Assembly (NCBI GenBank): GCA_039177115.1
Contig: JBCDFZ010000011.1
Location: forward strand, 42,386 to 106,385
Source: Myxococcota bacterium
GTDB taxonomy: Bacteria > Myxococcota_A > Polyangia > Polyangiales > Houyiibacteriaceae
Direction of reading: 5' to 3'
DNA length: 64,000 nucleotides
Below are positions 11,945 to 43,866 of this stretch, piece by piece (the stretch's first letter is position 1; every line of letters begins with the position of its first letter). Both the position numbers and the translations under genes were made by a program. The notes under the pieces are model-generated. The model was not told where the DNA came from, searched no databases, and saw only the letters and a list, made by a program, of their open reading frames with translations.

Positions 11945-11959
11945 TGCAAGCTGGTTGCT
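11945..11959. promoter_or_regulatory. operator-like palindrome, site a1 (TGCAAgctggTTGCT)
   Basis: Read directly in the zigA/zur intergenic region. One mismatch to TGCAA-N5-TTGCA. Confidence 0.6.
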
Positions 11960-11961
11960 TG

Positions 11962-11976
11962 TGCAAGTCGATGCGA
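11962..11976. promoter_or_regulatory. operator-like palindrome, site a2 (TGCAAgtcgaTGCGA, degenerate)
   Basis: Lies 3 bp after site a1. It shares TGCAAGTCGAT with site c at 17592. Confidence 0.4.
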
Positions 11977-11998
11977 TTACTTTCCGGGGGTCGAGCAT

Positions 11999-12448
11999 AT
12001 GGACAAAGAAGAGGTACGAAAGCTGCTCCGAGACCACGGGCTTCGGACGACGGCCCCACGCCTGGCTGTGCTCGGGCTGCTCGCGGAGGCGGACACGCCG
12101 CTCTCGCACAGCGAGGTGCTTGCACGTCTGGGCCACAACGACTGGGACCCGGCAACCATCTACCGCAATCTCGTGAAGCTCCGAGAGGCCGGCATCGCGC
12201 CGGTTGTCAGTCGGGTGGACGGCATTGACCGGTACGCCATGGCGGGTGCTCCCGGTGGCGGCCACGCGCATGCGCACTTCGTCTGCGACGACTGCGGTCG
12301 GGTCGCATGTCTGCCCGCCGAACTCACCCAGTCGATGTCGCTCCCGGGGCCGTGGGCAGACTCGATCGCGCAGGCGGTGGTTCAACTGCGCGGTCCGTGT
12401 CCGGACTGCCTCCGGCGAGGCGGTTCGGAGCGCACCGAAAGTCCGTGA
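11999..12448 (+). CDS. zur: Fur-family metalloregulator, Zur-like
   Basis: Winged-helix RLAVLGLL ... ATIYRNLVKLREAGI, plus two CxxC pairs (CDDCGRVAC and CPDC). Divergent from the COG0523 gene. Start ATG 11999 gives MDKEEV. Confidence 0.8.
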   Translation: MDKEEVRKLLRDHGLRTTAPRLAVLGLLAEADTPLSHSEVLARLGHNDWDPATIYRNLVKLREAGIAPVVSRVDGIDRYAMAGAPGGGHAHAHFVCDDCGRVACLPAELTQSMSLPGPWADSIAQAVVQLRGPCPDCLRRGGSERTESP

Positions 12449-12489
12449 GCTGAGAATTCGGGCGCATGGAGCGTCCTCTAAGGGCTATC

Positions 12490-12504
12490 TGCAAGCAATT
12501 TGCA
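12490..12504. promoter_or_regulatory. operator-like palindrome, site b (TGCAAgcaatTTGCA, perfect)
   Basis: Lies 38 bp upstream of the ATG at 12543. Confidence 0.6.
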
Positions 12505-12542
12505 AATGCGAGTTCACTGCGATAGCGGAATGACATCACGAC

Positions 12543-14921
12543 ATGGTGGATGAGCTTCGAAGAAAAGTCCTGCGGGTGCTTGCTGCCACGCCCCTGCTCT
12601 CAGGCGCCGCAGCCGGTTTGCTCGGCGGTTGCAACGCGAACTCGAAGGGGCAGGCCGTCGAGCCTGACCCCCTTTCCCCGGTCACGCCTCGGGAGGCACC
12701 TTGGGCGGGACGCCGCGCCGAGCGGAGCCTCGTCGACCAGCTCAATTTCGCGTCGCTGAAACGCGACGGGCTGCTCGTCGATTTCGGTTCGACCGACAGT
12801 TTCAAGTACACGTTTGGAGGCTGGCGTTCCGGCTGGGGCAAGCACCTCGAACGCGACGGCGTGGCCTATACCCATGCCACCAACCTGACGAGTCGCGTCA
12901 ACTTCCCATGGGACACCCAGGAGGCGCTGACCGTGCGCTTCAGGCTCCGTCGTGAGGCGAGCCGCTTCTTCTCCCTCTACATCAACAGCAAGCCGGTCGA
13001 GAAAGTCGACATCACGCGCGTCGACTGGACCACCTACGAGAGCGCCATCCCGGCGGAGCTGGTGAGGCCGGGAACCAATCACATGCTGCTTCGCTGGGAG
13101 AGGACCACGCGAGCGATGGGAGAAGATGTAGCGGCCGCAGTCGACTTCATCCACATCGCGCCCGCTGGCACGTCAGCGCCGAGCATGGAGGCGCTGCCGC
13201 GTCACGCCTCGCTCGTTCGTCAGATCGGGAGTGCGCCTTCGCTGCTGCTCGCGCCGGGGACCACGCTCTCCTACTGGATGGTCCCGCCAGAACAGGGTGA
13301 ACCGCTGTTGGGCTTCACCGCCGCCCCGGTTGCGGGCGAGGACGCTCCAGCCGCCGATGGCACTTCGGCCACGGGGATCCCGCTGAAGCTCGCGGTCACG
13401 GCGCACGTCGACGGTCGAGGCAAGAAAGAACTGCTCTCGGCTACGGTGAGCGACGGAACACCCCGGCCGCTCGCGGCCGCGCTGACGGGCTTCGCGGGAC
13501 AGGCGATCCGTCTCGACATCTCGGTCACCGGTGATCCCGGGAGCACCGGTGGCGTCGCGCTGGCCGAGCCCGCAGTCTACGTGAAGGGCAAGGACCCCGC
13601 CCCGCCGCCGTCCAAGCCTGCGAAGAACGCGATCGTCGTGATGATCGACACGCTTCGCGCAGACCACGTGAGCGCATACGCCAACACACGGGTGAAGGCG
13701 CCGGCTCTCGACGCGTTTGCGAGGGGTGGGGTCGTTTTCGAGCGCGACAGCGCCGTCGAGGACTGGACCAAGCCTTCGTGCGCCACGATGCTCACCGGCC
13801 TCTACCCGAACACGCACAAGACCCAGTCCGACTCGGGCAAGCTGCCCACCTCAGTGAAGATGGTGTCGGAGGAGATGAAGTCTCAGAACGTTTCCACCGG
13901 AGCGTTCATCGCGAACGGATACGTCTCCGGCAAGTTCGGTTTCGAAAAGGGCTGGGACGCCTACACGAACTACATCCGTGAGAACAAAAGGACCGAAGCC
14001 GAGCACGTCTTCACGGACGCCTTCGAGTGGATCGAACGGAAGGCGGAAGGGGGCGAACGCTTCTACGCGTACGTGCACACCATCGATCCACACGTGCCCT
14101 ACGATCCCCCCGACTCGTTCCTCGAGCTGTACGAGAAAGAGCCCTACCGGGGGAGCATCGCGCCGCGCAGCACAGCGCTCCTGCTCGAGGGCATCAAGAA
14201 GGGAACGTTCAAGCCAACCGCCGCCGACAAGCGACACATCCGCGCACTCTATGACGGCGAGATCAGCTACCACGACAAGTGGTTCGGCGACTTCATGGAC
14301 AAGCTCGGCAAGGCGGGCTTGCTCGAAGACACGGTGGTGATCGTCGTGTCAGATCACGGCGAAGAGTTTTGGGAGCACGGCAACGTGGGCCACGGCCACC
14401 AGATCCATCAGGAACTCATTCACGTGCCATTCATCATGAGTTGGAAGGGATCTCTGCCCGAAGGTGCGCGCGTCGCGGACAACCAGGACCACTGCAGCCT
14501 GGTGCCGACGCTCTTCGACGCGATGGGCCTGACGCGACCCGAGTACTTGGAGGGGAACTCCGTCCTCGGCATCGCCCGCGGCGAAGCGACTCCAGCCCCG
14601 GCGGCCGGCTTCTCCACTCACCAGGGAGAACGCGAGGCCGCCTGGTGCGGGCGATACAAGCTGCTGCAGCGCGGGCCCATTAGCACCTCGCTGTTCGACG
14701 TCGATGGCGATCCAGGGTGTCAGAACAACCTCAAGAACAGTCACCCGATTGCACTCACGACGATGCGCGCCGTGCTGGGGCAGTTCCAGGGTGCGCCCAA
14801 CAAGGCGCGCTGGCGTTCGCGAGACCTCGAGGAGGGCGTTGCCATGAACGTCGCGGCCGAGGACGTCGAGATGGACGCCACCACCAGCGAGCAGCTCAAG
14901 GCCCTCGGCTATTTCCGTTGA
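12543..14921 (+). CDS. sulfatase-like (alkaline-phosphatase superfamily) lipoprotein with a large unknown N-terminal domain
   Basis: Lipobox GLLGGC. From residue ~360: VVMIDTLRADH, PSCATMLTGLYPNTHK, VVSDHGEEFWEHG. Confidence 0.8.
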   Translation: MVDELRRKVLRVLAATPLLSGAAAGLLGGCNANSKGQAVEPDPLSPVTPREAPWAGRRAERSLVDQLNFASLKRDGLLVDFGSTDSFKYTFGGWRSGWGKHLERDGVAYTHATNLTSRVNFPWDTQEALTVRFRLRREASRFFSLYINSKPVEKVDITRVDWTTYESAIPAELVRPGTNHMLLRWERTTRAMGEDVAAAVDFIHIAPAGTSAPSMEALPRHASLVRQIGSAPSLLLAPGTTLSYWMVPPEQGEPLLGFTAAPVAGEDAPAADGTSATGIPLKLAVTAHVDGRGKKELLSATVSDGTPRPLAAALTGFAGQAIRLDISVTGDPGSTGGVALAEPAVYVKGKDPAPPPSKPAKNAIVVMIDTLRADHVSAYANTRVKAPALDAFARGGVVFERDSAVEDWTKPSCATMLTGLYPNTHKTQSDSGKLPTSVKMVSEEMKSQNVSTGAFIANGYVSGKFGFEKGWDAYTNYIRENKRTEAEHVFTDAFEWIERKAEGGERFYAYVHTIDPHVPYDPPDSFLELYEKEPYRGSIAPRSTALLLEGIKKGTFKPTAADKRHIRALYDGEISYHDKWFGDFMDKLGKAGLLEDTVVIVVSDHGEEFWEHGNVGHGHQIHQELIHVPFIMSWKGSLPEGARVADNQDHCSLVPTLFDAMGLTRPEYLEGNSVLGIARGEATPAPAAGFSTHQGEREAAWCGRYKLLQRGPISTSLFDVDGDPGCQNNLKNSHPIALTTMRAVLGQFQGAPNKARWRSRDLEEGVAMNVAAEDVEMDATTSEQLKALGYFR

Positions 14922-15340
14922 GCCAACGCCTGGAATGCGGTCGCGTATAGCTTCATCTGCTTGAGCATTGCAGATAGGCCGTTGGCACGGTTCTGAGAGA
15001 GGTGGGAGCCCAGACCGAGCTCATCGATGAAGCTCGGCGGTGCCGCGAGGATCGATTGCGGCGGCTCACCCGAGTAGAGTTCGAGGAGGATCGCGATGAG
15101 CCCGCGAACGATTGCCGCGTCCGAGTCGGCCAGGAACTCCACCCTGCCGTCCTCGAGCGCAGCGTGCATCCAGACCTGGCTTTGGCACCCCTTCACCTTG
15201 TTCCGCTCGGTGCGCTGGTCTTCCGGAAACTCAGGGAGCGAGCGGCCGAGCCGAATGATCTCGCTGTAGCGCTCCTCCCAGTCCTCAATCTTGCCGAAGC
15301 GCTCGACGAGGGCGGCCTGCCGTTCAGCAATCGTGGTCAT
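14909..15340 (-). CDS. sufE: cysteine desulfuration protein SufE
   Basis: 143 aa. KVKGCQSQVWM active-site Cys loop. 4-bp overlap with sufS. Confidence 0.85.
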   Translation of the reverse strand: MTTIAERQAALVERFGKIEDWEERYSEIIRLGRSLPEFPEDQRTERNKVKGCQSQVWMHAALEDGRVEFLADSDAAIVRGLIAILLELYSGEPPQSILAAPPSFIDELGLGSHLSQNRANGLSAMLKQMKLYATAFQALAQRK

Positions 15341-16599
15341 GCCATCATCCGCTGCACCTTGCGCAGCCCTTCGATGAACCCGTCGATGTCACCCTCGTTG
15401 TTGTATGGACCGAACGAAGCGCGCGCCGTAGCCGGTACCCCATAGTGACGCATCACTGGTTGCGCACAGTGGTGGCCTACGCGGATCGCGATGCCCTGCT
15501 CGTCCAACAGCGTCCCGATGTCGAAAGGATGAATGCCATCCAGCGTAAAGGCGAGAATACCGGCTTTCATAGGTGCGGTGCCCACGATTCGGACGCCAGG
15601 AAGCGCCTGGATTGCGCGAGTCGCGTACGCCAACAGCGCGTGCTCGTGGGCCGCGATCGACGGGCGGCCTAGCTCCTCGATCCAAGTCATCGCGGCACCG
15701 AGTCCGATCACCTGCGCGATCGGCGGCGTCCCCGCTTCGAAGCGGTGCGGGGGGTCGTCGAAGGTGGTTTCCTCGAAGGTGACTTTGTCGATCATCTCGC
15801 CGCCACCCATCCACGGGGGCATCGAGGCGAGGAGTTCTTTTCGGCCGTAGAGCAAGCCCACTCCCGTCGGCCCGAACATCTTGTGGCCGGAGCAGGCAAA
15901 AAAGTCCGCGCCGAGGGACTGAACGTCGAGGGGAATGTGCGGCGTGCTCTGCGCGCCATCCACGATCGCAACGGCTCCTTTCGCTCGGGCCATGCGTGTG
16001 ATCTCCGCAACCGGGTTCACGGTGCCTAGGGCGTTCGACACGTGCACCACAGACACGATCTTGGTGCGTTCGGTGATCTTCCGGCGGATCTCGTCGAGGT
16101 CGAGCTGGCCGCTATCGTCGAAGGACACGACCTTGATTGTCGCTTTCGTCTCTTTGCAGACGATTTGCCACGGAACGATATTGGCATGGTGCTCCATCTC
16201 GGTGATCAGCACTTCATCGCCGGGCCCGAGAACGCTTCGGCCGTAGCTGTACGCGACGAGGTTCATCGCCTCGGTCACGCCCCGAACGAATACAATCTCG
16301 TCGGGGTCCTCGGCGCCCAAGAATCTCGCGGCTTGCGCGCGCACACCCTCGTACCGCGCCGTGGCTTCCTGGCTGAGCGAGTAGACCCCGCGCCGAACGG
16401 TGGCGTACTCCTCCGCGTAGAACTTCGCGATCGTGTCGACAACCGCCTGAGGCTTGAGGCTCGTCGCCGCGCTGTCGAGAAAGATCAAGGGTCGGCCGTT
16501 CACCTCCCGCTGCAGGATCGGGAACTGCGCGCGGACCGCCTCGACGTCCAAGTGCTCGGGCTTCATCGATTCGGCCGTAACATATGGAGCGACGAGCAC
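15337..16599 (-). CDS. sufS: cysteine desulfurase SufS (class V aminotransferase)
   Basis: FLDSAATS, SGHKMFGPTGVG (PLP Lys) and RVGHHCAQP (active Cys). Start is GTG 16599 or ATG 16566. Confidence 0.9.
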   Translation of the reverse strand: MLVAPYVTAESMKPEHLDVEAVRAQFPILQREVNGRPLIFLDSAATSLKPQAVVDTIAKFYAEEYATVRRGVYSLSQEATARYEGVRAQAARFLGAEDPDEIVFVRGVTEAMNLVAYSYGRSVLGPGDEVLITEMEHHANIVPWQIVCKETKATIKVVSFDDSGQLDLDEIRRKITERTKIVSVVHVSNALGTVNPVAEITRMARAKGAVAIVDGAQSTPHIPLDVQSLGADFFACSGHKMFGPTGVGLLYGRKELLASMPPWMGGGEMIDKVTFEETTFDDPPHRFEAGTPPIAQVIGLGAAMTWIEELGRPSIAAHEHALLAYATRAIQALPGVRIVGTAPMKAGILAFTLDGIHPFDIGTLLDEQGIAIRVGHHCAQPVMRHYGVPATARASFGPYNNEGDIDGFIEGLRKVQRMMA

Positions 16600-16627
16600 A
16601 AGTGCGTGCCCCGCCAGGGCTGGCCGT

Positions 16628-17422
16628 TCAAGCCTCCTCGCCGCGGACCATGGCGTAGGCGGAGTGGTTGTGTATCGACTCGAGGTTTTCGACTTCGACT
16701 ATGTAATTGCCTACCAGCTCGTGAGCTCTGAGGGCGGCCGCGATGTCGCGGGCCATGTCCTCGACGAACTTGGGGTTCTCGTATGCGCGCTCGGTGACGA
16801 ACTTCTCATCGACGCGCTTGAGCACTCCATAGAGCTCGCTCGATGCCTGGGCCTCGACCAGATCGATGAGGTCTTCGATGTGCAAGCCGTTCGTCCATTC
16901 GGCGGCCACGGTGACGTGGGAGCGCTGGTTGTGCGCGCCGTACTCCGAGATCTCCTTCGAGCACGGGCAGAGGCTGGTGACAGGCACGACCACGACGAGC
17001 TGCGTCTTCAATGCGCCCTCAACGTAGTCACCGCGTAGCGTCACCTCGTAGTCGAGAGCGCTCGGAACGCCGCTCACCGGGGCGGCCTTCGTGACGAAGT
17101 AGGTGAAGCTCAACTCCACGTGCGCGCGCTCCGCATCCAGTCGATCGGCCACCGCGCGGATCAGTCCGCGGAAGCTCTCGATGTTGATCGGCGCGTCATG
17201 GCCGTTGATGATTTCGACGAAGCGGGACATGTGGGTGCCCTTGAGTTCCGGCGGCAAACCCACGTACATATTGAAACGCGCGACCGAGGCATGAACCTCG
17301 CCGCTGCGAGTGGCGACTCGGACCGGATGCCGGATGTCGCGAATGCCAACCCGATTGATCGCGATCTGCCGTGTATCGAGGATTCCCTGCACGTCGGGGA
17401 TCGACAGATGGTTCGTCGTCAC
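16628..17422 (-). CDS. folE2: GTP cyclohydrolase IB (FolE2, zinc-independent type)
   Basis: [12 protein letters not shown] ... GTHMSRF ... [12 protein letters not shown] start preceded by an AAGGAG ribosome-binding site. Confidence 0.85.
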
Positions 17423-17591
17423 TTGCTCTCCTTCATGTGCCCTTCGTCGGGGCGGCGTCGCTTCTACGTGGCGCTACGGGGGCGAGGCGCGCGCAGCAAG
17501 CGTGCCCTCGGACTCGGTAGGTCGAGGCCAATGCCCAGTGGCTGCACGCGCCTGCCGTCAAACCAGCCAAGTAGCGCAAGCAGATTGCTAC

Positions 17592-17606
17592 TGCAAGTCG
17601 ATTGCG
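17592..17606. promoter_or_regulatory. operator-like palindrome, site c (TGCAAgtcgaTTGCG)
   Basis: Lies between divergent folE2 and hisI, 18 bp upstream of the hisI ATG at 17624. Confidence 0.6.
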
Positions 17607-17623
17607 CTAGGTCTCGAGACCTC

Positions 17624-18100
17624 ATGCAGGAGTACCCCATGTTTGCGCCGCGACTCTCCGTTGAACAGGTCGAGGAAGGAAACGAGCTCGCGCCGAAGTT
17701 CGACGCGCAGGGCCTGATCCCCGTCGTGACCACATCCGTCGAGGACGGCGTCGTCCTGATGGTCGGGTACATGAACCGGGAGGCGCTGGCGAAAACCATC
17801 GAGACCGGGGAGGCTCACTACTTCAGCCGCAGTCGCCAAGCGCTCTGGCGAAAAGGGGCCACGAGCGGGCTCGTGCAGAAGGTAGTCGAGCTACGCGTCG
17901 ACGATGACCAGGACGCGCTGTGGCTTCGCGTGGACGTCGTGGGCGATGCCAGCTGCCACGTTGGCTACCGGTCCTGCTTCTATCGATCAGTCCCGGTGGG
18001 CAAGGCCGCGGGTCCGATTGAGCTAGCTTTCGAGGAGAAGGCGAAGGCTTTTGACCCGGTGGAGGTCTACGGCGACGCGCCCAACCCCACCAAGCTCTGA
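17624..18100 (+). CDS. hisI: phosphoribosyl-AMP cyclohydrolase (HisI paralog)
   Basis: [25 protein letters not shown] ... [16 protein letters not shown] ... [10 protein letters not shown]. Start is ATG 17624 or 17639. Confidence 0.85.
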
Positions 18101-18135
18101 ACGAAGCGCCGAGGCCTTTTCCCCGTACAGACGTC

Positions 18136-18990
18136 ATGAATGATTACTTTCACTGGGACGTCCATCGCGTCCTGTTCCACCTGGGCCCCCTCGAAATCCG
18201 ATACTACGGGTTGTTCTTTGCGGCCGGACTGCTCGTGAGCGTGCACATGATGGGACGCTCCTTTCGGGACCGCGGCCTGCCCGAGAAACACGCCGGCACC
18301 CTCAGCGTGCTCCTCCCCATCGGGATGCTCGTTGGCGCCCATCTGGTTCACCTCATCTTCTATGAGCCCCGCTCCATCATCGAGAACCCGATTCGCATCA
18401 TCGAGATCGGGAAGGGCCTCGCGAGCCACGGGGGAGGGCTGGGCGTGGTCCTGGCACTTCTCTGGTTCACGAGGCGACACGGGGTGAGTTGGCACCGCTA
18501 CGCAGACGCCGTCGTCATCGGCGCGGTCTGGATGATCCTCTTCGTCCGCATCGGCAACTTCTTCAACTCCGAGATCGTCGGGCGGGTGACGGATGTCCCC
18601 TGGGGCGTGGTTTTCGTGCAGCTCGGCGAGGACTTTCCCCGGCACCCCTCGCAGCTCTACGAAGCCATCTTGGGCATGGCCCTCATCGGCCTCGCGATGT
18701 TCATGCACGCAAAGCGCGACCGCCTTCGGGACGGCGCGACGCTGTACACGTTGATGGGCATCTACTTCGGCGTTCGCTTTTTTCTCGAGTACTTCAAGGA
18801 GTACCAGGCGGAGAGCCTGACGCCCGAGTTCCCCTTCACGATGGGACAGCTGCTGTCGGGCCCCGTTGCCCTTTTCTGCGGGTACATGGCCCTCTTTAGT
18901 CGTCGCTGCGGGCTGTTGTCTCAGCCGAAACCCCCGGCTTCAGACGAAGGCGAGAGCGATGAACGTGCCGCTACTCGCGCGAGAGGATGA
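18136..18990 (+). CDS. lgt: prolipoprotein diacylglyceryl transferase
   Basis: GPLEIRYYGLFFAAG, GLASHGG, RIGNFFNSEIVG and HPSQLYEA. Confidence 0.9.
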   Translation: MNDYFHWDVHRVLFHLGPLEIRYYGLFFAAGLLVSVHMMGRSFRDRGLPEKHAGTLSVLLPIGMLVGAHLVHLIFYEPRSIIENPIRIIEIGKGLASHGGGLGVVLALLWFTRRHGVSWHRYADAVVIGAVWMILFVRIGNFFNSEIVGRVTDVPWGVVFVQLGEDFPRHPSQLYEAILGMALIGLAMFMHAKRDRLRDGATLYTLMGIYFGVRFFLEYFKEYQAESLTPEFPFTMGQLLSGPVALFCGYMALFSRRCGLLSQPKPPASDEGESDERAATRARG

Positions 18991-19021
18991 TAGTTTAGCT
19001 AGGCGCAGTGCGAGGGGTGCG

Positions 19022-35351: not shown

Positions 35352-35852
35352 ATGCGTCTAAAGGTCGAACATCATGGTCATGCGTGCGACTGCACGGCTC
35401 ACCGCGCTTCCGAGGCGGCCACCGGTAAGGCGGGCCTATGGTCCGCGGTCCTGCCGGTGCTGGCCTGCGCTGTCTGCCCTGCATGTCTCACGATGTACGC
35501 AAAGCTGTTCTCAGTGCTCGGCGTGGGTGTCGGCCTCGACGATTTCCACCATCTAATGCTCCTCGTGGTCGCGATCGGTGCGTCGAACGGGCTGAGCGCA
35601 TGGATTTCGTGGCGGACACGGCGCGTTTGGCCGATCGCCATCGCGCTCACGGGCTCGGCCCTCGTCATGATCGGGCACTTCGGTGGCGACCTTCACGTCG
35701 TCGAGTGGGCGGGGTTCCTCATATTGCTCGGCGGTGGCCTTGGCGAGCACTTCCGACTGCGCCGGGCAGCTCGGCGGGCTTCGTCGTCGGCACCGCATCC
35801 GCATCCGCACGCCGCACCCGCGTCGCACGATGCGGTCTCTCCGCGTCTGTAA
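35352..35852 (+). CDS. MerC-like metal-transport membrane protein with His/Cys-rich termini
   Basis: GGAGG ribosome-binding site, then MRLKVEHHGHACDC. TM1 carries LACAVCPAC (compare MerC CAACFPA). About four TM segments. Tail HPHPHAAPASHD. Confidence 0.55.
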   Translation: MRLKVEHHGHACDCTAHRASEAATGKAGLWSAVLPVLACAVCPACLTMYAKLFSVLGVGVGLDDFHHLMLLVVAIGASNGLSAWISWRTRRVWPIAIALTGSALVMIGHFGGDLHVVEWAGFLILLGGGLGEHFRLRRAARRASSSAPHPHPHAAPASHDAVSPRL

Positions 35853-35890
35853 AGGACGCCCGGGTCGGCCGATCGGCACTTTGAACGCAA

Positions 35891-35905
35891 TGCAACTGAG
35901 TTGCA
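35891..35905. promoter_or_regulatory. operator-like palindrome, site e (aTGCAActgagTTGCAg, perfect)
   Basis: Lies 130 bp upstream of the metallophosphoesterase ATG at 36035. Confidence 0.6.
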
Positions 35906-36034
35906 GACCCTACCCAAACGGGGTAGGGACGCCTCGATGTGGGCCCAGCTTCTCCCTTCATCGTATTCGGCCGCCTGGCGCTTGCGGCTGAACACTGCCT
36001 CCGCAGGTGATCGCGTCGAGGAGGTGATCGCCCG

Positions 36035-36940: not shown

Positions 36941-38570
36941 CGCGGCCGCGAGTGTAGTGCTCGTCGGCTTCGAATCCGTCGGCAAGTCCGCTCTCTTCCG
37001 CGGCCTCACCGGGCACGCCACTGGTGATGAGGCCAACTTTCGCGGCTCGACGGTGATCTGCCGCCGGTGCCACCTACAGGAGTGCGAGTGCGAGCTCGTC
37101 GATGTGCCTGGGATCCGGCTCGAGAGCGACAGCGCCACGACGGCGCTCGCGCTCGAGACTCTCGAAGACGCGGACACCGTGATGCTCGTGGTCCGTGCGC
37201 CGTTTCTGCTCGAGGAAGCGCGAGCGTTGCTCGAAACCGTTCGCTTGGGTGGAAGGCGCCTTGCCGTCGTCGTCACCTTCGCAGACAAAGTGTCGGCCGA
37301 CCTCTCAGCTGCCGTCAACAAGCTTCAGGCGCAGCTCGGCGTGCCCGTCGTCGCCCTCGACGCACGCGAGATGGGCGAGAGGCGCACCGACCTGTTCGAG
37401 GCGATTCGAGAAGCGCGCCCCCTCAACGACGCCAGCTTCGATACGCCTCTAGTTCAGCTCCGCGCCCGCCGGCCGCCTCGGACAGTCTTCGAGCACCCGA
37501 CGTGGGGGCCATGGGTGGCGCTCGTTGGCATCCTCGGGCTGCTCGCCGTTCCCGTGATGGGCGCGTTCTATCTCGCAGACTGGCTTCAGCCTACCGTCGA
37601 TGCCGTTGCGATCGTTCCCCTCACGGAAGCGCTCAGCGGAGTATGGCCTCCGCTCGCGGCCGTGTTGGTCGGCCCGTACGGCGTGCTGACGCTCGGATCG
37701 TACTCGTTCCTCTGGGCTTTCCCGGTCGTCCTTTTCTTGGGCGTGGCGAGCAGCGTGGCCGAGGAAACGGGCCTTCACGATCGAATCACCACCGCGCTCG
37801 ACCCTTGGCTTCGCCACGTCGGACTGTCGGGCCGCGATCTCGTCCCCGTGCTGACCGGCTTCGGGTGCAACGTCGTCGCCGTGCTCCATTCGCGCTCGTG
37901 CTCTTCTTGCTCGAGAAAGAACTGCGTCAGCCTCGTCGCGTTCGGTAGCGCGTGCAGCTACCAGATCGGCGCAAGCCTCTCGTTGTTTGGCTCGGCGGGG
38001 TACTCGTGGATGTTCGCACCGTATCTGCTGACCGTGTTCGTCGTCGGCCTCGTACACGTCCGCGTCTGGAACGGCTCACTCGCCGACCAGGCGGCGCCTC
38101 GGCTCGATGAGCGCGCCTACCTCCAGCCACCTTCGGCGAGGGCCGTGCTCTGGCGGATCAGCGTCGTGCTCAAGCAGTTTCTGCTCCAAGCGATGCCCAT
38201 CTTTCTCGTGCTCTGCGTCATCTCTGCGGTTATCGAACAAACAAACGCGATGGCTGCGTTGTCCAGTCTGCTCGGCCCCGGCCTGGGCTTCTTTCAGCTA
38301 CCCAGCGACATGGCGCTTCCCGTGCTCTTCAGCCTCCTTCGCAAGGACGGGATGTTGCTTCTGAACGCCGATAACGGCGCCTTGCTTGGGTCTCTGACAG
38401 GAGGACAGCTCTTCGTCGTGGTGTACCTCGCGAGCACGCTCGCGCCGTGTCTCGTCACACTCGCCGCGGTGGGACGGGAGCTTGGCTGGCGGACCGCGGG
38501 CGGCGTGGCGGGGCGTCAGGCGCTCACGAGCGTCGCGAGCGCGTGGCTGATTAGCCAGGTCGTATGGTGA
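36930..38570 (+). CDS. FeoB-like GTPase-permease (short form)
   Basis: The GTG start overlaps the preceding stop by 11 nt. G1 motif GFESVGKS, G3 motif DVPG, and membrane core LTGFGCNVVAV ... AFGSACSYQ as in FeoB. G4 is atypical (TFAD). Confidence 0.75.
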   Translation: MPADAAASVVLVGFESVGKSALFRGLTGHATGDEANFRGSTVICRRCHLQECECELVDVPGIRLESDSATTALALETLEDADTVMLVVRAPFLLEEARALLETVRLGGRRLAVVVTFADKVSADLSAAVNKLQAQLGVPVVALDAREMGERRTDLFEAIREARPLNDASFDTPLVQLRARRPPRTVFEHPTWGPWVALVGILGLLAVPVMGAFYLADWLQPTVDAVAIVPLTEALSGVWPPLAAVLVGPYGVLTLGSYSFLWAFPVVLFLGVASSVAEETGLHDRITTALDPWLRHVGLSGRDLVPVLTGFGCNVVAVLHSRSCSSCSRKNCVSLVAFGSACSYQIGASLSLFGSAGYSWMFAPYLLTVFVVGLVHVRVWNGSLADQAAPRLDERAYLQPPSARAVLWRISVVLKQFLLQAMPIFLVLCVISAVIEQTNAMAALSSLLGPGLGFFQLPSDMALPVLFSLLRKDGMLLLNADNGALLGSLTGGQLFVVVYLASTLAPCLVTLAAVGRELGWRTAGGVAGRQALTSVASAWLISQVVW

Positions 38571-38621
38571 TATCTCAGTTGATGAGCTAAGGGGCAATCA
38601 AGGAAAGACTAGGAGTGTTCA

Positions 38622-38864
38622 ATGTTTCGATGTGAGCTTTGCGAACGCGTGTCGCAGCCCGGGGAGAGTCAGATCAAGGTCATCGTAGAACGACGCCCCG
38701 CCGAATACCCAAGCCGTGGCAAGGCACAGCGTTCGCGCGTGGGTCGCCGGAGCAAGTTTGGCGATGACCCGGGTGGGGCAGGCTACGAGATCGTCAGGGA
38801 AAAGATCGCCTGCGTCGCGTGTATCGATGAGCACATCGAGCGCGAGCCCGTAGAAACGCTCTGA
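38622..38864 (+). CDS. small 4-Cys (CxxC...CxxC) protein, hypothetical
   Basis: AGGAG ribosome-binding site 6 nt upstream. MFRCELCE...IACVACI. I prefer it over the antisense ORF at 38619..38921 because of the RBS and GC3 bias. Confidence 0.4.
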
Positions 38865-38892
38865 CGCGAATGGGAGCGGCGACGAGGCATCG

Positions 38893-39462
38893 ATGATTCT
38901 GTCAGACTCCGACATTCTCAAGCGCCTGAACCAGGGAGACCTCGTCGTCGATCCTCTCCTGGATCGAGACCTTCAAGTCCAGCCAGCCAGTGTAGACCTT
39001 CGGCTATCGTCGGAGTTCATCGTCTATCGAGCGGCGCAGGTTGCGTTCCTCGATCCGCGTCGTCCCGAAACGCTGCAGTCCAACACGGAGCGGATCCACG
39101 TCGTCGACGACGAACCGTTCATCCTGCATCCCGGGCAGTTCGCGCTGGGGTCCACGCTCGAACGCGTCGAAATCCCGGCTGACCTCGTTGCCCGGGTCGA
39201 CGGCCGGAGCAGCCTCGGCCGGCTCGCGGTCGTGGTGCACGCTACTGCGGGTTTCATCGACCCTGGGTTTTCCGGGCAGATCACCCTCGAGCTATCGAAC
39301 ATTGGCCCCATCCCCGTCCGGCTCTATCCCGGCATGCGCGTCGCGCAAATCGTTTTGTACCGAATGACGTCGCCCGCGGAGCGGCCTTACGGGCGCGATC
39401 GAGGGAGCCGGTATCAAGATCAGGCCGGGCCCGTCACGAGCCGGATCGAACTCGATCCTTGA
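38893..39462 (+). CDS. dcd: dCTP deaminase
   Basis: [37 protein letters not shown] and LELSN. Confidence 0.9.
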
Positions 39463-39531: not shown

Positions 39532-40356
39532 CTAGAGTTGAAACTGCATACCCTCCCGCGCAGTAAACGCGGACGGCCATGCACTCTTGGCCTCGGCTTC
39601 CAGCTGGTCCATGAACGCGTCGTCATGGTCGGGGTCGTGGTGGAAGATCGCCAAGCTTTTGGCGTTCGCCTCTTGGCAGAGGCGGACGCCTTCCTGCCAG
39701 GTGGAGTGCCCCCACCCGACGTGCGAAGGCAGCTCCGCATCGGTGTACGTCGAGTCGTAGATGACCAGGTCGGCCCCCTCGATGAGCGACAAGATGTGCT
39801 CGTCGAGCTTGCCGGGCGTATGTTCGGTGTCTGTGACGTAGCAGAGCGCCTTGCCGCCATACTCGAGCCGATAGCCTGTTGCACCGTCGGGGTGGTTTAG
39901 CTTTGCCGTCTTCACGTCGACCTTGTTCGACAGCGCGAAGCCGTCGCCCCTAGCGAAATCCTCGAACTCGAGGTCGGCGTGAAGCGCTTCGAGCGGCACC
40001 GGAAAGTTCGGAGCGGCCATCTGTCCTGAGAGCACTTCGCGGATGCCTCCGGTCGACTGGAGCCCGCCCGCCATGATTCGCATGGCGCAGGCCTCCGAGT
40101 ACACGGGCTGGAAGAACGGAAAGCCTGCCGTGTGATCCCAGTGCACGTGTGTGAGAAGGAGCGTGGTTCTGAGCTTGCCTCGTTCGAGAAGCTGGCGGCC
40201 GAGTCCTCGCATCCCGGTACCTGCGTCTAGGATTATCTGTTCTCCGCCGAGGTCGAGCTGTACGCAGCTGGTGTTGCCTCCGTAGCGAGCATACTCTCGT
40301 TCCGGGCAAGCGATGCTGCCGCGCACTCCCCAGAACCGCACCCCGAACGCAGGCAT
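39532..40356 (-). CDS. MBL-fold metallo-hydrolase
   Basis: LLLTHVHWDHTAGFPFF (HxHxDH) and a downstream HHDPDHDD. Lies 5 bp downstream of the PyrC-like gene. Confidence 0.8.
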   Translation of the reverse strand: MPAFGVRFWGVRGSIACPEREYARYGGNTSCVQLDLGGEQIILDAGTGMRGLGRQLLERGKLRTTLLLTHVHWDHTAGFPFFQPVYSEACAMRIMAGGLQSTGGIREVLSGQMAAPNFPVPLEALHADLEFEDFARGDGFALSNKVDVKTAKLNHPDGATGYRLEYGGKALCYVTDTEHTPGKLDEHILSLIEGADLVIYDSTYTDAELPSHVGWGHSTWQEGVRLCQEANAKSLAIFHHDPDHDDAFMDQLEAEAKSAWPSAFTAREGMQFQL

Positions 40357-40361
40357 CTGGC

Positions 40362-41768
40362 CTAGTCCGCCTCCAGGAAACGGATCATCTTTCCCCGGGC
40401 AGTGCCCACCAGTTGCTCATCGCGAACGATGATATCGCCGCGGATGATGGTGTGGATCGGCCAACCCGTGACCCGCTTGCCATCATAGGGCGTCCAGCCG
40501 GTTCGGCTCGCGATCCATTCGTTGCGGATCGTGCGCTCACCGGCGAGATCGACGACGGTCAGATCGGCGTCGTACCCACGCGCGATCCGACCCTTGCCTT
40601 CGATACCGAAGATACGCGCCGGGCCCGCGCTGGTTAGATCGACCACGCGTTGCAGACTGAGGCGGCCCGCGTGCGCGTGGTCGAGGAGCAGCGGCAACAG
40701 GGTCTGCACGCCCGTCATTCCACTCGGTGACTGAGGGAACGGGAGCGCCTTCTCCTCGAGCGTATGCGGTGCGTGATCACTGCCAACCACGTCGACCACA
40801 CCTTCATTGACGGCCTGCCAAAGCGCGTCTTGGTGTCGCTGTTCACGCACGGGCGGGTTCATTTGGGCGAGAGTCCCCAGGCGCTCGTAGCACTCTGGCG
40901 CATGCAGAGTGAGATGCTGTGGCGTGACCTCCACCGTCACGCGTTGCTTGTGCTTTGCCAAGAACGCGATCTCTTCGGCGGTGGTGATGTGCAGCAAGTG
41001 AAGACGACGGCCCGACTCGGCTGCGATGCCAACGATGCGACGCGTCGCCTTGAACGCGCTTTCTACGTCACGCCAATGGGGGTGTTGACTGACATCGCCA
41101 CTACCCTCGACCAGTGCCTTGCGCTCGCGGAGCCGCTCTTCGTCTTCCGCATGTATCGCCATGCGGCGGCGACCGTGGCGCACGATGCGGCGGAGCGTGG
41201 CGTCGTCGTCCGCGAGCAGGTCGCCGAAAGAGCTGCCCATGAATACCTTCACCCCCGCGCAGCCCGGCAGGCGTTCCAAAGACTCCAACTCCTCTGCGTT
41301 GACTCCCGAGCCGCCGATGTAGAATGCGTAGTCGCACCATGCGCGACCTGCCGCCGCCTCGAGCTTGGCGTTCAGGTCGTCGGCCCAAAGCGTCAGCGGG
41401 TTGGTGTTGGGCATCTCGAAAACGCCCGTCACGCCGCCGAGGACCGCGCCGCGAGTACCGGTTTCGAGGTCTTCTTTGTGAACCAGTCCGGGCTCACGGA
41501 AATGCACCTGGCTGTCGATGACGCCCGGAAGGACGTGCAGGTTCGAGACGTCGAGTGCGGTGTCTGCGCTCCAAGAGCCGCAGAGATCGCCGAGGGCCAC
41601 GATGCGGCCCGCAACGCAGGCCACGTCGATGCGTTCCGCGCCGTTGGGGGTCTGCACGATGCCGCCGTGCACCAGCAACTCGGCGTGGCGGCGAGCCCGC
41701 GCTTCTTCTTCGATGTCCACGCCAGCCATGGGAGCAGCCTCCGGGAGAGTTGGGTCACCCCGACCCAA
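40362..41768 (-). CDS. dihydroorotase/allantoinase-family amidohydrolase (PyrC-like paralog)
   Basis: GVIDSQVHFREPG, GVKVFMG, IHAEDE, LHLLHITT and GSDHAPH. An alternative start at 41729 gives MAGVDIEE. Confidence 0.8.
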   Translation of the reverse strand: MGRGDPTLPEAAPMAGVDIEEEARARRHAELLVHGGIVQTPNGAERIDVACVAGRIVALGDLCGSWSADTALDVSNLHVLPGVIDSQVHFREPGLVHKEDLETGTRGAVLGGVTGVFEMPNTNPLTLWADDLNAKLEAAAGRAWCDYAFYIGGSGVNAEELESLERLPGCAGVKVFMGSSFGDLLADDDATLRRIVRHGRRRMAIHAEDEERLRERKALVEGSGDVSQHPHWRDVESAFKATRRIVGIAAESGRRLHLLHITTAEEIAFLAKHKQRVTVEVTPQHLTLHAPECYERLGTLAQMNPPVREQRHQDALWQAVNEGVVDVVGSDHAPHTLEEKALPFPQSPSGMTGVQTLLPLLLDHAHAGRLSLQRVVDLTSAGPARIFGIEGKGRIARGYDADLTVVDLAGERTIRNEWIASRTGWTPYDGKRVTGWPIHTIIRGDIIVRDEQLVGTARGKMIRFLEAD

Positions 41769-41790
41769 CTCAATTGCAACTTATCCCAGA

Positions 41791-41805
41791 TGCAATCATA
41801 TTGCA
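41791..41805. promoter_or_regulatory. operator-like palindrome, site f (aTGCAAtcataTTGCAt, perfect)
   Basis: Lies 23 bp upstream of the PyrC-like start at 41768 and 58 bp upstream of the small ORF at 41863. Confidence 0.65.
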
Positions 41806-41862
41806 TCTGGCTGCCCCAGAGGGAGCAAAACGCTCGATGGCAACCGTTGCGTGAGGTGAAAC

Positions 41863-42078
41863 GTGGAGGGACTGTGCGAAACCTACGATGAGTGGAAGCA
41901 CTGCATCACCGTGAAGTGCAGAATCCCGCTCACCTCCGACTTCGTCGCGAAGCGTATCAAGGCGCTCAACGACGAACGAAACCCAACGACCGCACGCTTC
42001 ATCGCGCTCTACGGTGACTCGTACCGGTTGCGAACAATCGGATGGTTCGAGCAGGCTCGCAACGAACTCGGCGGCTGA
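41863..42078 (+). CDS. small hypothetical protein (71 aa)
   Basis: GTG start immediately after an in-frame stop, with a GAGGTG ribosome-binding site 4 nt upstream. Contains CETYDEWKHCITVKC. Confidence 0.4.
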   Translation: MEGLCETYDEWKHCITVKCRIPLTSDFVAKRIKALNDERNPTTARFIALYGDSYRLRTIGWFEQARNELGG

Positions 42079-42160
42079 GCTGGCCCACCTTCGGAGTCAT
42101 ACAGCGGCAGTGAAGTCTGACGGTTAGCGGCGCTCCCTCGCATGTGATAATTTTTCGTCC

Positions 42161-42652
42161 ATGGATGCCGTCGCGAAGATCTCAAAGGATTCCGTCGTCT
42201 CCATCGAATACACGCTCACCGATGAGGCGGGCGTCGTGGTCGGTAGGAGTCCAGGGAACGACCCTCTGTCGTACGTGCACGGCCGCGGCGGCGTGGTACC
42301 CGGTCTCGAGAGAGAACTAACCGGCAAGAGCGTCGGCGATCAGGTCTCCGTCACCCTCGAACCGAAGGATGGCTACGGCGTCTACGACGACACGCTGACC
42401 TTCGAGATGCCCCGGGCCAGGCTTCCTGCGACCGTCCAGCCTCAAAAAGGAATGGCGCTGGTCATGAACGGAGCCGGCGGACGCCAGTTCCCAGTGGTCA
42501 TCCTGGAAGTGAAGCCAGAGAGTGTCGTCATCGACAGAAACCATCCCTTCGCCGGCAAGACGCTGCGTTTCGACGTACGAGTGAAGGGGCTGCGCGAGGC
42601 GAGGCCAGAGGAACTGAACGACTGCTGTAGTTCGGGAACCTGTTCGGTCTAG
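42161..42652 (+). CDS. slyD: FKBP-type peptidyl-prolyl isomerase SlyD with Cys-rich tail
   Basis: VSIEYTLTDEAGVVV, YVHGRGGVVPGLERELTGK and NHPFAGKTLRFDV. Tail NDCCSSGTCSV. Confidence 0.85.
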   Translation: MDAVAKISKDSVVSIEYTLTDEAGVVVGRSPGNDPLSYVHGRGGVVPGLERELTGKSVGDQVSVTLEPKDGYGVYDDTLTFEMPRARLPATVQPQKGMALVMNGAGGRQFPVVILEVKPESVVIDRNHPFAGKTLRFDVRVKGLREARPEELNDCCSSGTCSV

Positions 42653-42678
42653 CCCGGGAGTTCTCCGACCTCAGCCCC

Positions 42679-43776
42679 CTACCAGATGGAGGGAGGCTCG
42701 GGCGGATACCGTGAATCGATCAAGCCTCGGCAGGCGAGGTCGGAAAACTGATCGGCGAACGTGGCCCGGGTAGGGCGGGGCTCGAAGCCCAGGATACTCT
42801 TCGCCTTGTCAGCGGAGTAGCTCATGTTCGCGAACATGAGACGAGCGCTGGCCTCCGACAGGGGCAGCGCGGCTCTCGGAGCAAACCAACGTTTCGCGTT
42901 GTCGAGCGCCTTCCCTACGAAGAGCACGAAGCCGGGTTTCAAGAGCCACATCCTCAGCTTGACGTCGGTCGACTGCTCGAACGCGTCGACGAATTCCTGG
43001 TGAGATGTATTGTTGGCCAGGATGAAGTCGTCGTGAACTTCATCCATGAAGGCGACCCAATGAACCTTTGCCGCGTCGCGCGCATCGACGTAGGCGAGCG
43101 ACATGCCCTCCGGGTAGAAGTAAGTTCGCGCACGCGCGTAGCGCACGATGAGCTGGTTGATCAACGCGTCGTCGCGACTTCGCGGCCCGATCGGCGACGG
43201 TAAGTACGAAACCGTGACGCGAAGGCCATCGGCCTGTGCCGCGAGGAGCTTTCGAGTCGCCTGTTTCTTGGCCAGCAGGTAGGGGAGTGTCGCGTACACC
43301 GCCTCCTCTTCGTCGCCGGAGACCTCGGTCCGCTCCGTGATGATCCCTTCCTTCGGGCATGGAATGCCCGCACTCGAGTGAGCTTTATGAAGCGTGAGCC
43401 CGAGTTCGCGTGCCACTCGGATCACGTTCTCGACTCCGCGTAGGTTGATCGCCTCGATTCGTCCGCTCTCGTCTCGAGCACTGAGGTCGATTCGAGTTAC
43501 CGAATCGAAGAGCAGCGACTGCGTGGTGAAGTCGCTGCAGGCGGCGCGAACGCTGTCCACGTCTCTGACGTCGCCCGGCCGGCAGACGACCCCTTGCGGA
43601 AAGTCTTTGGCCCGAGCCATGTCGCGAAGGAGCACGCGAAACTCGCAGTCGGGATAGAGGGCGAGACCCTGCTCGAGAAACACCCGTCCGATGTGCCCCG
43701 TCGCACCGATCACGAGCACCTTGTCGGGGGCGCGACCCGGTTCGAGCCGGGTCTCAGGTTCCGTGAATCGCGTCAC
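42679..43776 (-). CDS. NAD(P)-dependent epimerase/dehydratase-type SDR
   Basis: VLVIGATGHIGRVF Rossmann motif and YLLAK (YxxxK). The long ORF to 44301 overlaps the MerC-like gene and is His/Arg-rich junk. The GTG 43776 start is tentative. Confidence 0.65.
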   Translation of the reverse strand: MTRFTEPETRLEPGRAPDKVLVIGATGHIGRVFLEQGLALYPDCEFRVLLRDMARAKDFPQGVVCRPGDVRDVDSVRAACSDFTTQSLLFDSVTRIDLSARDESGRIEAINLRGVENVIRVARELGLTLHKAHSSAGIPCPKEGIITERTEVSGDEEEAVYATLPYLLAKKQATRKLLAAQADGLRVTVSYLPSPIGPRSRDDALINQLIVRYARARTYFYPEGMSLAYVDARDAAKVHWVAFMDEVHDDFILANNTSHQEFVDAFEQSTDVKLRMWLLKPGFVLFVGKALDNAKRWFAPRAALPLSEASARLMFANMSYSADKAKSILGFEPRPTRATFADQFSDLACRGLIDSRYPPEPPSIW

Positions 43777-43851
43777 GCGACGGAGAGATTCACCAAACCA
43801 CAAGCGCGCGCAAACGGATGCTTTCGCTGTCACTGCTTTATCGCAATCAGC

Positions 43852-43866
43852 TTGCAAGAGCAGGAT
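43852..43866. promoter_or_regulatory. operator-like palindrome, site g (CGCAAtcagcTTGCA)
   Basis: One mismatch. Lies 22 bp upstream of the MerC-like ATG at 43888 and is divergent to the SDR gene. Confidence 0.55.

Follow-up and report, generated by a model that had tools for sequence, protein, structure and literature searches.

Recurrent TGCAA-N5-TTGCA palindromes as candidate operators of Zur-type regulators in a marine Myxococcota genome

A system close to the one analysed here was predicted by Rodionov et al. (2004, Genome Biol 5:R90, PMC545781), who proposed a Zur_D box, ATGCAACnnnGTTGCAT, upstream of znuABC-zur in two Desulfovibrio genomes. Zur-regulated paralogs described in other bacteria include COG0523 proteins (ZigA/YciC/CobW1-3), FolE2, PyrC2, HisI2 and DksA2 (Haas et al. 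2009, PMC2770081; review PMC6103462), and Escherichia coli Zur binds its znuABC operator as a dimer of dimers (PDB 4MTD; Gilston et al. 2014, PMC4219657). We examined a stretch of 64,000 nucleotides from an uncultured marine member of the Myxococcota (assembly GCA_039177115.1, contig JBCDFZ010000011.1, positions 42,386 to 106,385), hereafter called the window, in which palindromes of the form TGCAA-N5-TTGCA recur in seven promoter regions and two Fur-family regulators, Fur-A and Fur-B, are encoded next to such sites. Our reading, to which we give a probability of about 70% on the basis of comparative sequence analysis, is that these palindromes are operators of Fur-family repressors of the Zur type.

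Recurrent palindromes and their conservation

The exact palindrome TGCAANNNNNTTGCA occurs four times in the window (at 12490, 35227, 35891 and 41791), compared with 0.03 occurrences expected from dinucleotide-preserving shuffles. When one mismatch is allowed the count rises to seven (adding 11945, 17592 and 43842) for 0.91 expected, and none of 100 shuffles reached seven. Two over-extended open reading frames (ORFs) were trimmed on the basis of Pfam domains and homolog lengths, 17120-18100 to a start at 17624 and 42679-44301 to a start at 43776. All eight strong boxes then lie between genes, 14-152 nt from the nearest start codon, and since the non-coding share of the window is only about 10%, the probability of such a placement by chance is about 1e-8. 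The 50-nt flanks of the boxes are unrelated (mean identity of 28%), so a dispersed repeat element was ruled out. The initial annotation had reported a recurrent palindrome in seven promoter regions, with every site intergenic. The palindrome is real, and its intergenic position holds for the eight strong sites; the comparison with coding and background sequence that the annotation had called for, performed here within the window, found strong sites only between genes and counts in shuffled sequence far below those observed. Its list of sites was right for the most part but had to be amended: the last site is located at 43842-43856 and not at 43852, the site at 11962 is a poor match (three core mismatches and a matrix score of 4.6, compared to 12.8-28.3 for the strong boxes, see below), and the site at 17575-17589 had been overlooked, as had two weak partner sites at 12507 and 41764. 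From its sequence, 11962 appears credible solely as the weak partner in a tandem offset by 17 bp. A further matrix match at 14958, inside the 3' end of sufE, is weak and was taken as chance.

Conservation was followed in stretches fetched from other genomes around homologs or box matches (L-numbered loci). Orthologs of Fur-A, 56-74% identical, were found in Enhygromyxa salina, Plesiocystis pacifica, Haliangium-like and Nannocystales metagenome-assembled genomes (MAGs), Bradymonadia and some 'Acidobacteriota' MAGs. The nearest relatives of the bacterium are Enhygromyxa, Plesiocystis and related MAGs. The autoregulatory position of the box is kept: in 25 of 28 loci, the Fur-A ortholog is preceded at a distance of 50-190 bp by a box with no more than one mismatch, as in Enhygromyxa salina (L001) and Plesiocystis pacifica (L019), and the position is retained in many Fur-B loci. 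The upstream neighbour of furA orthologs on the opposite strand is usually an ortholog of zigA (seven related loci, 74-86% identity) or of the FAD-oxidoreductase gene (L016 and L022); the latter is also divergent to furA, behind boxes of the A type defined below, in L002, L019 and L023. A 23-bp position weight matrix (PWM) was built solely from 37 external sites at Fur-A ortholog loci and then run on the window. A matrix scan had been advocated in the initial annotation, and with this matrix taken from other genomes the eight strong sites rank first, in the order 12490, 35227, 43842, 41791, 17592, 11945, 35891 and 17575 (scores of 12.8-28.3), all remaining positions scoring 9.9 or less. At the level of sequence, the external matrix is an independent confirmation that the sites form one class, with which a Fur-family protein would be associated.

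The Desulfovibrio box, which the initial annotation had given correctly as ATGCAACnnnGTTGCAT, has the same half-sites and the same spacing, and in both systems a Fur-family regulator is encoded beside its own box. The annotation had further stated that one site matches it almost exactly; indeed, ATGCAACTGAGTTGCAG in the window (35890-35906) and ATGCAACtgaGTTGCAT in D. desulfuricans differ only at the last, flanking base and have an identical 15-nt core. Three sites of the window, called B-type below, agree with the consensus at 13/14 (35890-35906), 13/14 (35226-35242) and 12/14 (41790-41806) of the specified positions, whereas the A-type sites differ from it at positions 6 and 10 as well as in the outer A/T. 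The systems differ in two further respects: only znuABC-zur was assigned in Desulfovibrio, compared with seven promoters, zinc-sparing genes and no znuABC in view in the window, and the consensus does not have the G at position 6 that half of the window boxes carry. A scan with the D. vulgaris 17-mer ATGCAACAGTGTTGCAT, using one genome per species, returned at least 120 species-representative genomes with an exact match (L127-L246). Among the 120 matches listed, a Fur homolog is present within the fetched locus (up to 8 kb) in 34 cases, often adjoining the site, and a ZigA-like gene with 52% identity or more in 17; others have hisI paralogs or homologs of a 71-aa ORF. The matches listed come from taxa such as Bacteroidota, Methylophilaceae, Sulfuritalea and Balneolaceae, often as pairs 37-40 bp apart, and include no Desulfovibrio record; the Fur homologs beside the 17-mer in other phyla share 24-38% identity with Fur-A and Fur-B. 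Because it is present in at least 120 species, often beside Fur or ZigA-like genes, this box is widespread and not peculiar to the source genome, and it appears to be a Zur operator distributed far beyond what the 2004 prediction implied.

Box types and the two Fur-family paralogs

The initial annotation had placed two Fur-family regulators next to sites, and both proteins pass the Pfam FUR profile (PF01475, cut-off 23.1 bits) with 46.2 bits for Fur-A and 58.5 bits for Fur-B. From translations and alignments, their CxxC pairs (CDDC...CPDC in Fur-A, CNDC...CAAC in Fur-B) are predicted to form a structural zinc site, and Fur-A carries a HAHAH motif in addition. The best PDB matches of both paralogs are Fur, Zur, PerR and Nur chains. 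They share with E. coli Zur the winged-helix Fur fold, palindromic operators and the Tyr-Arg pair of helix alpha-4 (Y55-R56 in Fur-A, Y64-R65 in Zur), Arg56 aligning with the base-contacting Arg65 of this recognition helix (Gilston et al. 2014, PMC4219657). The E. coli Zur box itself is unrelated, being RNNNY-rich and AT-rich instead of built on TGCAA, and the NCBIfam Zur model NF008646 gives only 35 bits for Fur-A and 21.8 bits for Fur-B against a cut-off of 167 bits, so that neither is an ortholog of E. coli Zur. Since no curated Zur or Fur equivalog is passed, we use 'Zur' as a functional label only.

Half-sites at Fur-A loci are mostly TGCAAG-N3-CTTGCA, while those at Fur-B and Fur-B-like loci read TGCAA[C/T]-N3-[G/A]TTGCA. 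A G at position 6 is present in 60 of 92 half-sites at Fur-A loci compared with 4 of 148 at Fur-B loci (Fisher 7e-28, a figure that ignores kinship). Boxes of the window were classified with PWMs derived from external loci only, by a log-odds score (LLR) that is positive for type A and negative for type B. Type A comprises 11945, 11962, 12490, 17575, 17592 and 43842 (LLR of +2.6 to +6.3), and type B 35227, 35891 and 41791 (LLR of -1.6 to -3.7). The A boxes precede zigA/furA, the sulfatase-like gene, folE2-sufSE/hisI-lgt-phoX and merC2-oxidoreductase, all but the last being located around furA, and the B boxes surround furB, in front of saoD-furB/merC1, metallophosphatase/FeoB-like and pyrC2/71-aa-slyD. 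The lone A-type box of the second cluster is the one before merC2 and the oxidoreductase gene, whose orthologs adjoin furA behind A-type boxes elsewhere. The two types also differ in architecture: a tandem partner at +17 bp accompanies 33% of the strong sites at Fur-A loci (background 0.2%), with no enrichment at Fur-B loci. Three such pairs are found in the window (11945/11962, 12490/12507 and 17575/17592), and by analogy with the dimer of dimers of E. coli Zur these double A-type sites suggest two dimers per operator.

The paralogs, 41% identical to each other, differ in the recognition helix, which in Fur-A (DPATIYRNLVKLR) is clade-specific. Across 155 aligned Fur homologs of the fetched loci, residue 51, just before the ATIYRN motif, is a proline in 27 of 28 Fur-A proteins and an arginine or lysine in all but one of 110 others in the three groups compared (22/22 Fur-B, 59/59 Fur-B-like and at least 29/29 distant homologs). 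Two further positions set Fur-A, with Lys60 and Arg62, apart from the other proteins, with Ser/Thr/Asp and Thr/Ala; the helices read D-P-ATIYRNLVKLR in Fur-A and D-R-ATIYRNLLSLT in Fur-B. Pro51 aligns with Pro60 of E. coli Zur, at the start of helix alpha-4.

On these sequence patterns, we see about even chances that the two paralogs of the window are both Zur-like and use separate versions of the operator. In this arrangement, Fur-A would recognise TGCAAG/CTTGCA half-sites, often as double sites offset by 17 bp, and Fur-B the ancestral, Desulfovibrio-type ATGCAA[C/T]-N3-[G/A]TTGCAT; this assignment of paralogs to boxes is our proposal. A fuller version, which we advance tentatively and at slightly less than even odds, is that the operators of the two co-resident paralogs differ only at positions 6 and 10 and in architecture, matched by the Pro/Arg switch of the helix, and that the response would be divided into two separately tunable tiers, drawing in families that are not known to be linked to zinc, namely MerC-like, SaoD/DsrE, SufSE, FeoB-like/metallophosphatase, the lipoprotein phosphatase module lgt-phoX and 71-aa proteins. 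Fuangthong and Helmann are said to have found in 2003 that the 7-1-7 boxes of Bacillus subtilis Fur, PerR and Zur differ at one or two positions per half-site. The principle proposed for Fur-A and Fur-B is the same, a few base positions and helix residues separating the palindromes. In contrast to the B. subtilis paralogs, which sense different signals, the Fur-A/Fur-B split would lie within one stimulus, because both lineages are linked to zinc genes.

Several observations speak against such a split. The correlation between Pro51 and G-type boxes traces to one clade and therefore amounts to a single evolutionary event, and the A-type sites of the window are hybrids without exception, pairing a G half with a C/T/A half. 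Moreover, some Fur-A loci have a few B-like sites (L010, L012, L023 and L028) and some ZigA orthologs lie behind B-type boxes (L050). The same facts can be accommodated by a single zinc regulon in which one paralog occupies all boxes, the other having a different sense or being redundant, and the G or C/T at positions 6/10 reflecting tolerated lineage drift. The TGCAA/TTGCA core and the ATIYRN motif, identical for both paralogs, agree with it, as do the hybrid sites, the single clade behind the correlation and the occurrence of ZigA orthologs behind either type depending on the genome. We consider this explanation plausible but clearly less likely than the main reading: position 6 is G in 65% of half-sites at Fur-A loci and 3% at Fur-B loci although spacer and flanks vary freely, the 17-bp tandems are specific to Fur-A loci, three recognition-helix residues differ systematically, and each lineage is independently tied to zinc genes. 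In addition, a close relative (L048) has both types side by side, sorted by target, with an A-type box for the zigA gene beside furB and B-type boxes for merC1 and the metallophosphatase gene.

Zinc-related neighbours and layout of the window

The genes behind the boxes (Table 1) connect the system to zinc. Profile searches upheld the gene descriptions of the initial annotation, namely COG0523/ZigA, FolE2, HisI, PyrC, two MerC-like proteins, a FeoB-like protein and SlyD. The COG0523 protein reaches 634.3 bits over its full length with the NCBIfam ZigA model NF038288, above the equivalog cut-off of 600, and only 161 bits with the CobW model TIGR02475, below its cut-off of 332. A role as CobW for the cobalamin island located 9 kb away was rejected on this ground and because the island is under riboswitch control. 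PyrC2 scores 720 bits with the NCBIfam dihydroorotase model PRK09060 (cut-off 482), and its metal motif VIDSQVHFREPG has QVH for HxH, a glutamine replacing the first histidine zinc ligand, while the HisI copy retains its cysteines. Both features match the description by Haas et al. (2009, PMC2770081) of a Zur-regulated PyrC paralog without zinc ligands and of a HisI paralog that keeps its cysteines. The closest homologs of PyrC (73-80% identical) are proteobacterial pyrC2 products clustered with hisI2, folE2, COG0523 and 71-aa ORF homologs, and TGCAACTGAGTTGCA is found upstream of pyrC2 in three Pandoraea genomes; the genome scan with PyrC returned mostly proteobacteria, and thus informs on gene identity and not on myxobacterial footprinting. 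Besides PyrC2 and HisI, the window also contains FolE2, a zinc-independent GTP cyclohydrolase. In relatives, the gene divergent from the furA ortholog of L007, behind A-type boxes, encodes a ZnuA (249 bits, with a long His-rich loop), and the neighbours of Fur-B relatives include COG0523 paralogs, TonB-dependent receptors and a ZIP-like permease. Like this ZnuA gene, COG0523 and TonB receptor genes of relatives are preceded by the same box. A metagenome scan with FolE2 yielded 80 unrelated loci from distant taxa only (58-64% identity) and was chiefly useful as a negative control; exact matches to the box number three in these loci, each located 65-80 bp upstream of folE2 (L343 2433, L349 1137 and L367 2421).

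Compared with the Zur regulons of Pseudomonas, Cupriavidus and Acinetobacter, the window has the same zinc-sparing set (ZigA-class COG0523, FolE2, PyrC without zinc ligands, HisI keeping them), and the proteobacterial PyrC and HisI copies are 63-80% identical to its own. The operator sequence is different, however, the regulator is only about 25-30% identical, and the window additionally contains the MerC-like proteins, SaoD/DsrE, SufSE, FeoB-like/metallophosphatase, lgt-phoX, the 71-aa protein and a second regulator paralog. PyrC2 and HisI2 are this close to gamma- and beta-proteobacterial copies (L247-L295) although regulators across these phyla are only 24-38% identical, which suggests, from the sequences, that the zinc-sparing genes spread horizontally and that boxes were rewired locally.

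The possibility that another signal than zinc is sensed, at least by Fur-B, be it Mn/Fe (Mur/Fur-like), Ni/Co (Nur-like) or peroxide (PerR-like), was considered in this light. SlyD is a nickel-binding chaperone in E. coli, and the targets further include the FeoB-like transporter, SufS/SufE and a COG0523 gene located close to a cobalamin island; in relatives, a NicO-like transporter (L060) and a CbiM-like gene (L013) are found in the vicinity of boxes, and the Fur, Zur and PerR NCBIfam models all give 20-38 bits, far under their cut-offs and without separation. Against this, the COG0523 protein is a ZigA equivalog and not CobW, the cobalamin genes have their own three B12 riboswitches and no box, no siderophore, sitABCD/mntH, catalase or ahpC gene is among the targets, ZnuA, FolE2, PyrC2 and HisI2 are hallmark Zur targets (PMC2770081), and the same box precedes znuABC-zur in Desulfovibrio (PMC545781). 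The presence of ZigA, ZnuA, FolE2 and PyrC2, together with the separate control of the cobalamin genes, therefore makes another metal or peroxide very improbable. That the palindromes are no operators at all is hardly credible: each box can form a short hairpin, that of the perfect 23-nt palindrome at 41791 reaching -11.4 kcal/mol, but chance is excluded by the shuffle counts and intergenic placement, a dispersed repeat by the unrelated flanks, and 5'-leader RNA hairpins are countered by the weakness of the remaining ones (-3.8 to -5.6 kcal/mol, no better than shuffled sequence), by the location of most boxes between divergent genes, where an RNA element could serve one side only, and by the conservation of half-site letters instead of pairing, in boxes that accompany Fur-family genes across phyla.

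Table 1. Boxes and genes of the window. PWM and LLR are the scores obtained with matrices from external loci; operon extents are putative.
Feature	Position	Strand	Type or family	Remarks
Double operator zigA/furA	11945-11976		A-type	Strong box 11945-11959 TGCAAGCTGGTTGCT (PWM 19.5, LLR +2.6) and weak partner 11962-11976 TGCAAgtcgaTGCGA (PWM 4.6, LLR +6.3), offset 17 bp
Box and partner before sulfatase-domain gene	12490-12521		A-type	12490-12504 TGCAAGCAATTTGCA, exact core, 38 nt upstream of the gene, PWM 28.3 (highest of the window); weak partner 12507-12521, PWM 8.9; LLR +5.4
Double operator folE2 (-)/hisI (+)	17575-17606		A-type	17575-17589 CGCAAGCAGATTGCT and 17592-17606 TGCAAGTCGATTGCG, offset 17 bp; PWM 12.8 and 20.3, LLR +5.2 and +4.9
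Box saoD/dsrE-furB (-)/merC1 (+)	35227-35241		B-type	TGCAATTCAGTTGCA; 17-bp form ATGCAAT-TCA-GTTGCAT; PWM 27.2, LLR -1.6
Box before metallophosphatase/FeoB-like operon	35891-35905		B-type	TGCAACTGAGTTGCA, 129 nt upstream; LLR -3.7
Box pyrC2 (-)/71-aa gene-slyD (+)	41764-41805		B-type	41791-41805 TGCAATCATATTGCA, part of a perfect 23-bp palindrome (PWM 21.0, LLR -3.1); weak site 41764-41778 (PWM 9.9)
Box NAD-epimerase (-)/merC2-FAD-oxidoreductase (+)	43842-43856		scores A-type	CGCAATCAGCTTGCA, one CTTGCA half; PWM 22.1, LLR +2.9
zigA, COG0523 zinc metallochaperone GTPase	10651-11886	-	Pfam cobW and CobW_C; NCBIfam ZigA	
furA, 149 aa	11999-12448	+	Pfam FUR	Candidate Zur for A-type boxes; start is ATG at 11999, 11990 being an in-frame GTC
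Sulfatase/alkaline-phosphatase-superfamily membrane protein, 792 aa	12543-14921	+	Pfam Sulfatase	No NCBIfam equivalog passed
Putative operon folE2, sufS-like cysteine desulfurase, sufE	14909-17422	-	Pfam GCHY-1 (304 bits), Aminotran_5, SufE	folE2 16628-17422; sufS-like 15337-16599; sufE 14909-15340
Putative operon hisI paralog, lgt paralog, phoX	17624-20629	+	Pfam PRA-CH, LGT, PhoX	hisI 17624-18100; lgt 18136-18990; phoX 18959 or 19025 to 20629, start overlapping or abutting lgt
Cobalamin island: cobN, TonB receptor, cobD, cobQ, cobO	20.7-34.2 kb			Cobalamin riboswitches 20753-20978 (98 bits), 26057-26250 (79 bits) and 28442-28629 (84 bits), preceding in turn cobN, the TonB-dependent receptor and a 450-aa protein without Pfam match (28653-30005)
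Putative operon SaoD/DsrE-family gene, furB (149 aa)	34267-35212	-	NCBIfam NF040913 (200.7 bits, cut-off 152); Pfam FUR	SaoD/DsrE gene 34784-35212; furB 34267-34716
merC1, weak MerC-like membrane protein	35352-35852	+	Pfam MerC, 26.1 bits (slightly below the 27.6 cut-off)	N-terminal His/Cys motif; 85% ortholog divergent to furB in L047 and L048
Metallophosphatase, FeoB-like GTPase/permease, possibly dcd	36035-39462	+	Pfam Metallophos_2, FeoB_N and Gate, DCD; FeoB equivalogs not passed	Metallophosphatase 36035-36940; FeoB-like ~36900-38570; dcd 38893-39462
pyrC2 and metallo-beta-lactamase-fold gene	39532-41729	-	PRK09060; Lactamase_B_2	pyrC2 40362-41729, ATG at 41729; second gene 39532-40356
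71-aa ORF and slyD-type FKBP isomerase	41863-42652	+		ORF 41863-42078; slyD 42161-42652
NAD-epimerase	42679-43776	-		
merC2 and FAD/NAD(P) oxidoreductase	43888-45473	+	Pfam MerC (62.8 bits); Pyr_redox_2, NAD_binding_9	merC2 43888-44295; oxidoreductase ~44300-45473

The initial annotation had described a regulon spanning 32 kb. Box-bearing genes are indeed present at both ends, but since the cobalamin island between them has its own riboswitches and the PWM scan gives no box within it, they form two clusters, at 10.6-20.6 kb and 34.3-45.5 kb, around an unrelated island; these 13 kb appear to be controlled by the three B12 riboswitches and not by the box. We infer the extents of the operons hisI-lgt-phoX, folE2-sufS-sufE and metallophosphatase-FeoB-like-dcd. 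In L047 and L048, a B-type counterpart of the 35227 box lies between merC1 and furB, and a box is kept upstream of the metallophosphatase gene. The latter overlaps the divergent FeoB-like GTPase/permease gene (36035-38570), and the pair is retained behind a B-type box in both loci. The sufS-sufE pair directly follows furB in the close relative L047 (3947-5583) and folE2 in the window; it switches between the two putative regulons, yet remains within zinc clusters.

Some less familiar neighbours recur in other phyla. The 71-aa ORF has no Pfam or NCBIfam match, and its homologs (38-53% identical) are found at loci with zigA, pyrC2, hisI2 or boxes, often directly adjacent, as in Methylophilaceae (L136), Aureispira (L184), Sphingobacteriaceae (L196), Gilvimarinus (L250-252), Marinobacter (L258) and L247; judged from these neighbourhoods, it appears to be a conserved member of zinc-starvation clusters across phyla. 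PhoX is a Ca/Fe-type alkaline phosphatase, in contrast to the zinc-dependent PhoA. The copy in the window has a Tat motif (TRRRFLEF) and a lipobox and directly follows the Lgt paralog, downstream of the box-preceded hisI. The lgt-phoX pair recurs in L047, an Lgt paralog lies behind two boxes in Balneolaceae (L161), and lgt-phoX may serve zinc-sparing phosphate acquisition. The same Balneolaceae genome carries a SaoD/DsrE homolog, 66% identical, directly behind two Desulfovibrio-type boxes (L161 4598-4972). SaoD/DsrE (apparently co-transcribed with furB), the two MerC-like proteins, SufSE and the FAD oxidoreductase suggest a sulfur-trafficking theme; our literature search found nothing relevant linking DsrE or MerC to zinc. 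Finally, boxes also precede genes for secreted proteins in Enhygromyxa (L001 ~2860-1970, minus strand) and in a Bradymonadales MAG (L022 ~4300-3450, minus strand). These proteins have repeated CGGHGxxHxxHCHCDPG motifs and acidic His-rich stretches, with short EGF-like matches only in Pfam, and may be extracellular metal-binding proteins.

Proposed regulation and its significance

The zinc-starvation reading put forward in the initial annotation draws support from the conservation of the box, the external PWM, the ZigA equivalog, the QVH motif of PyrC2, the ZnuA in a relative and the Desulfovibrio box. Following the general behaviour of Zur proteins (review PMC6103462), a zinc-loaded dimer of the regulator would bind the palindrome in or beside the promoter and block transcription. 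Upon zinc shortage the repressor would leave the DNA and the seven divergent or single promoters would open. The cell would then express the zinc metallochaperone ZigA, the zinc-independent or extra enzymes FolE2, PyrC2 (without one zinc ligand), HisI2 and possibly the Ca/Fe phosphatase PhoX, together with the two MerC-like proteins, the FeoB-like protein with its metallophosphatase, and SlyD. The regulators themselves would be among the targets, hence autoregulated.

A number of points weigh against this interpretation. Identity of either paralog to solved Fur-family proteins does not exceed about 25-30%, neither reaches the cut-off of any NCBIfam Zur, Fur or PerR equivalog (best 38 vs 220 bits), and in the alignment the site-B ligands His77 and Cys88 of E. 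coli Zur are not conserved in them. The window contains no znuABC genes and no ribosomal-protein paralogs, while the MerC-like proteins, SaoD/DsrE, SufSE and the oxidoreductase would be targets without a known role in zinc biology. A sigma-70 promoter scan around every box found nothing promoter-like, with a consensus that may not fit myxobacterial promoters, and any overlap of box and promoter is putative. We infer DNA binding, repression, metal specificity and the role of zinc as effector from the gene content and the analogy with Zur.

A Zur regulon comprising COG0523, FolE2, PyrC2 and HisI2 is textbook knowledge, and the prediction of this type of box dates from 2004. The novelty lies in the lineage (marine Myxococcota), in the additional members and in the hypothesis that two Zur-like paralogs coexist, with operators that can be told apart; our search of the literature on Zur found no description of zinc regulation in Myxococcota. 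For this phylum, the window provides an operator model, a cross-genome matrix and a candidate regulon. If the split between the paralogs is true, the separation of two Fur-family regulators that respond to the same stimulus would come down to a single base pair in each half-site and a few residues of the helix. The 71-aa protein, the MerC-like membrane proteins, the sulfur-trafficking set and PhoX become candidate members of the zinc-starvation response. PhoX in particular is possibly controlled by zinc, a point of interest for the idea that its use spares marine bacteria the zinc that PhoA would require.

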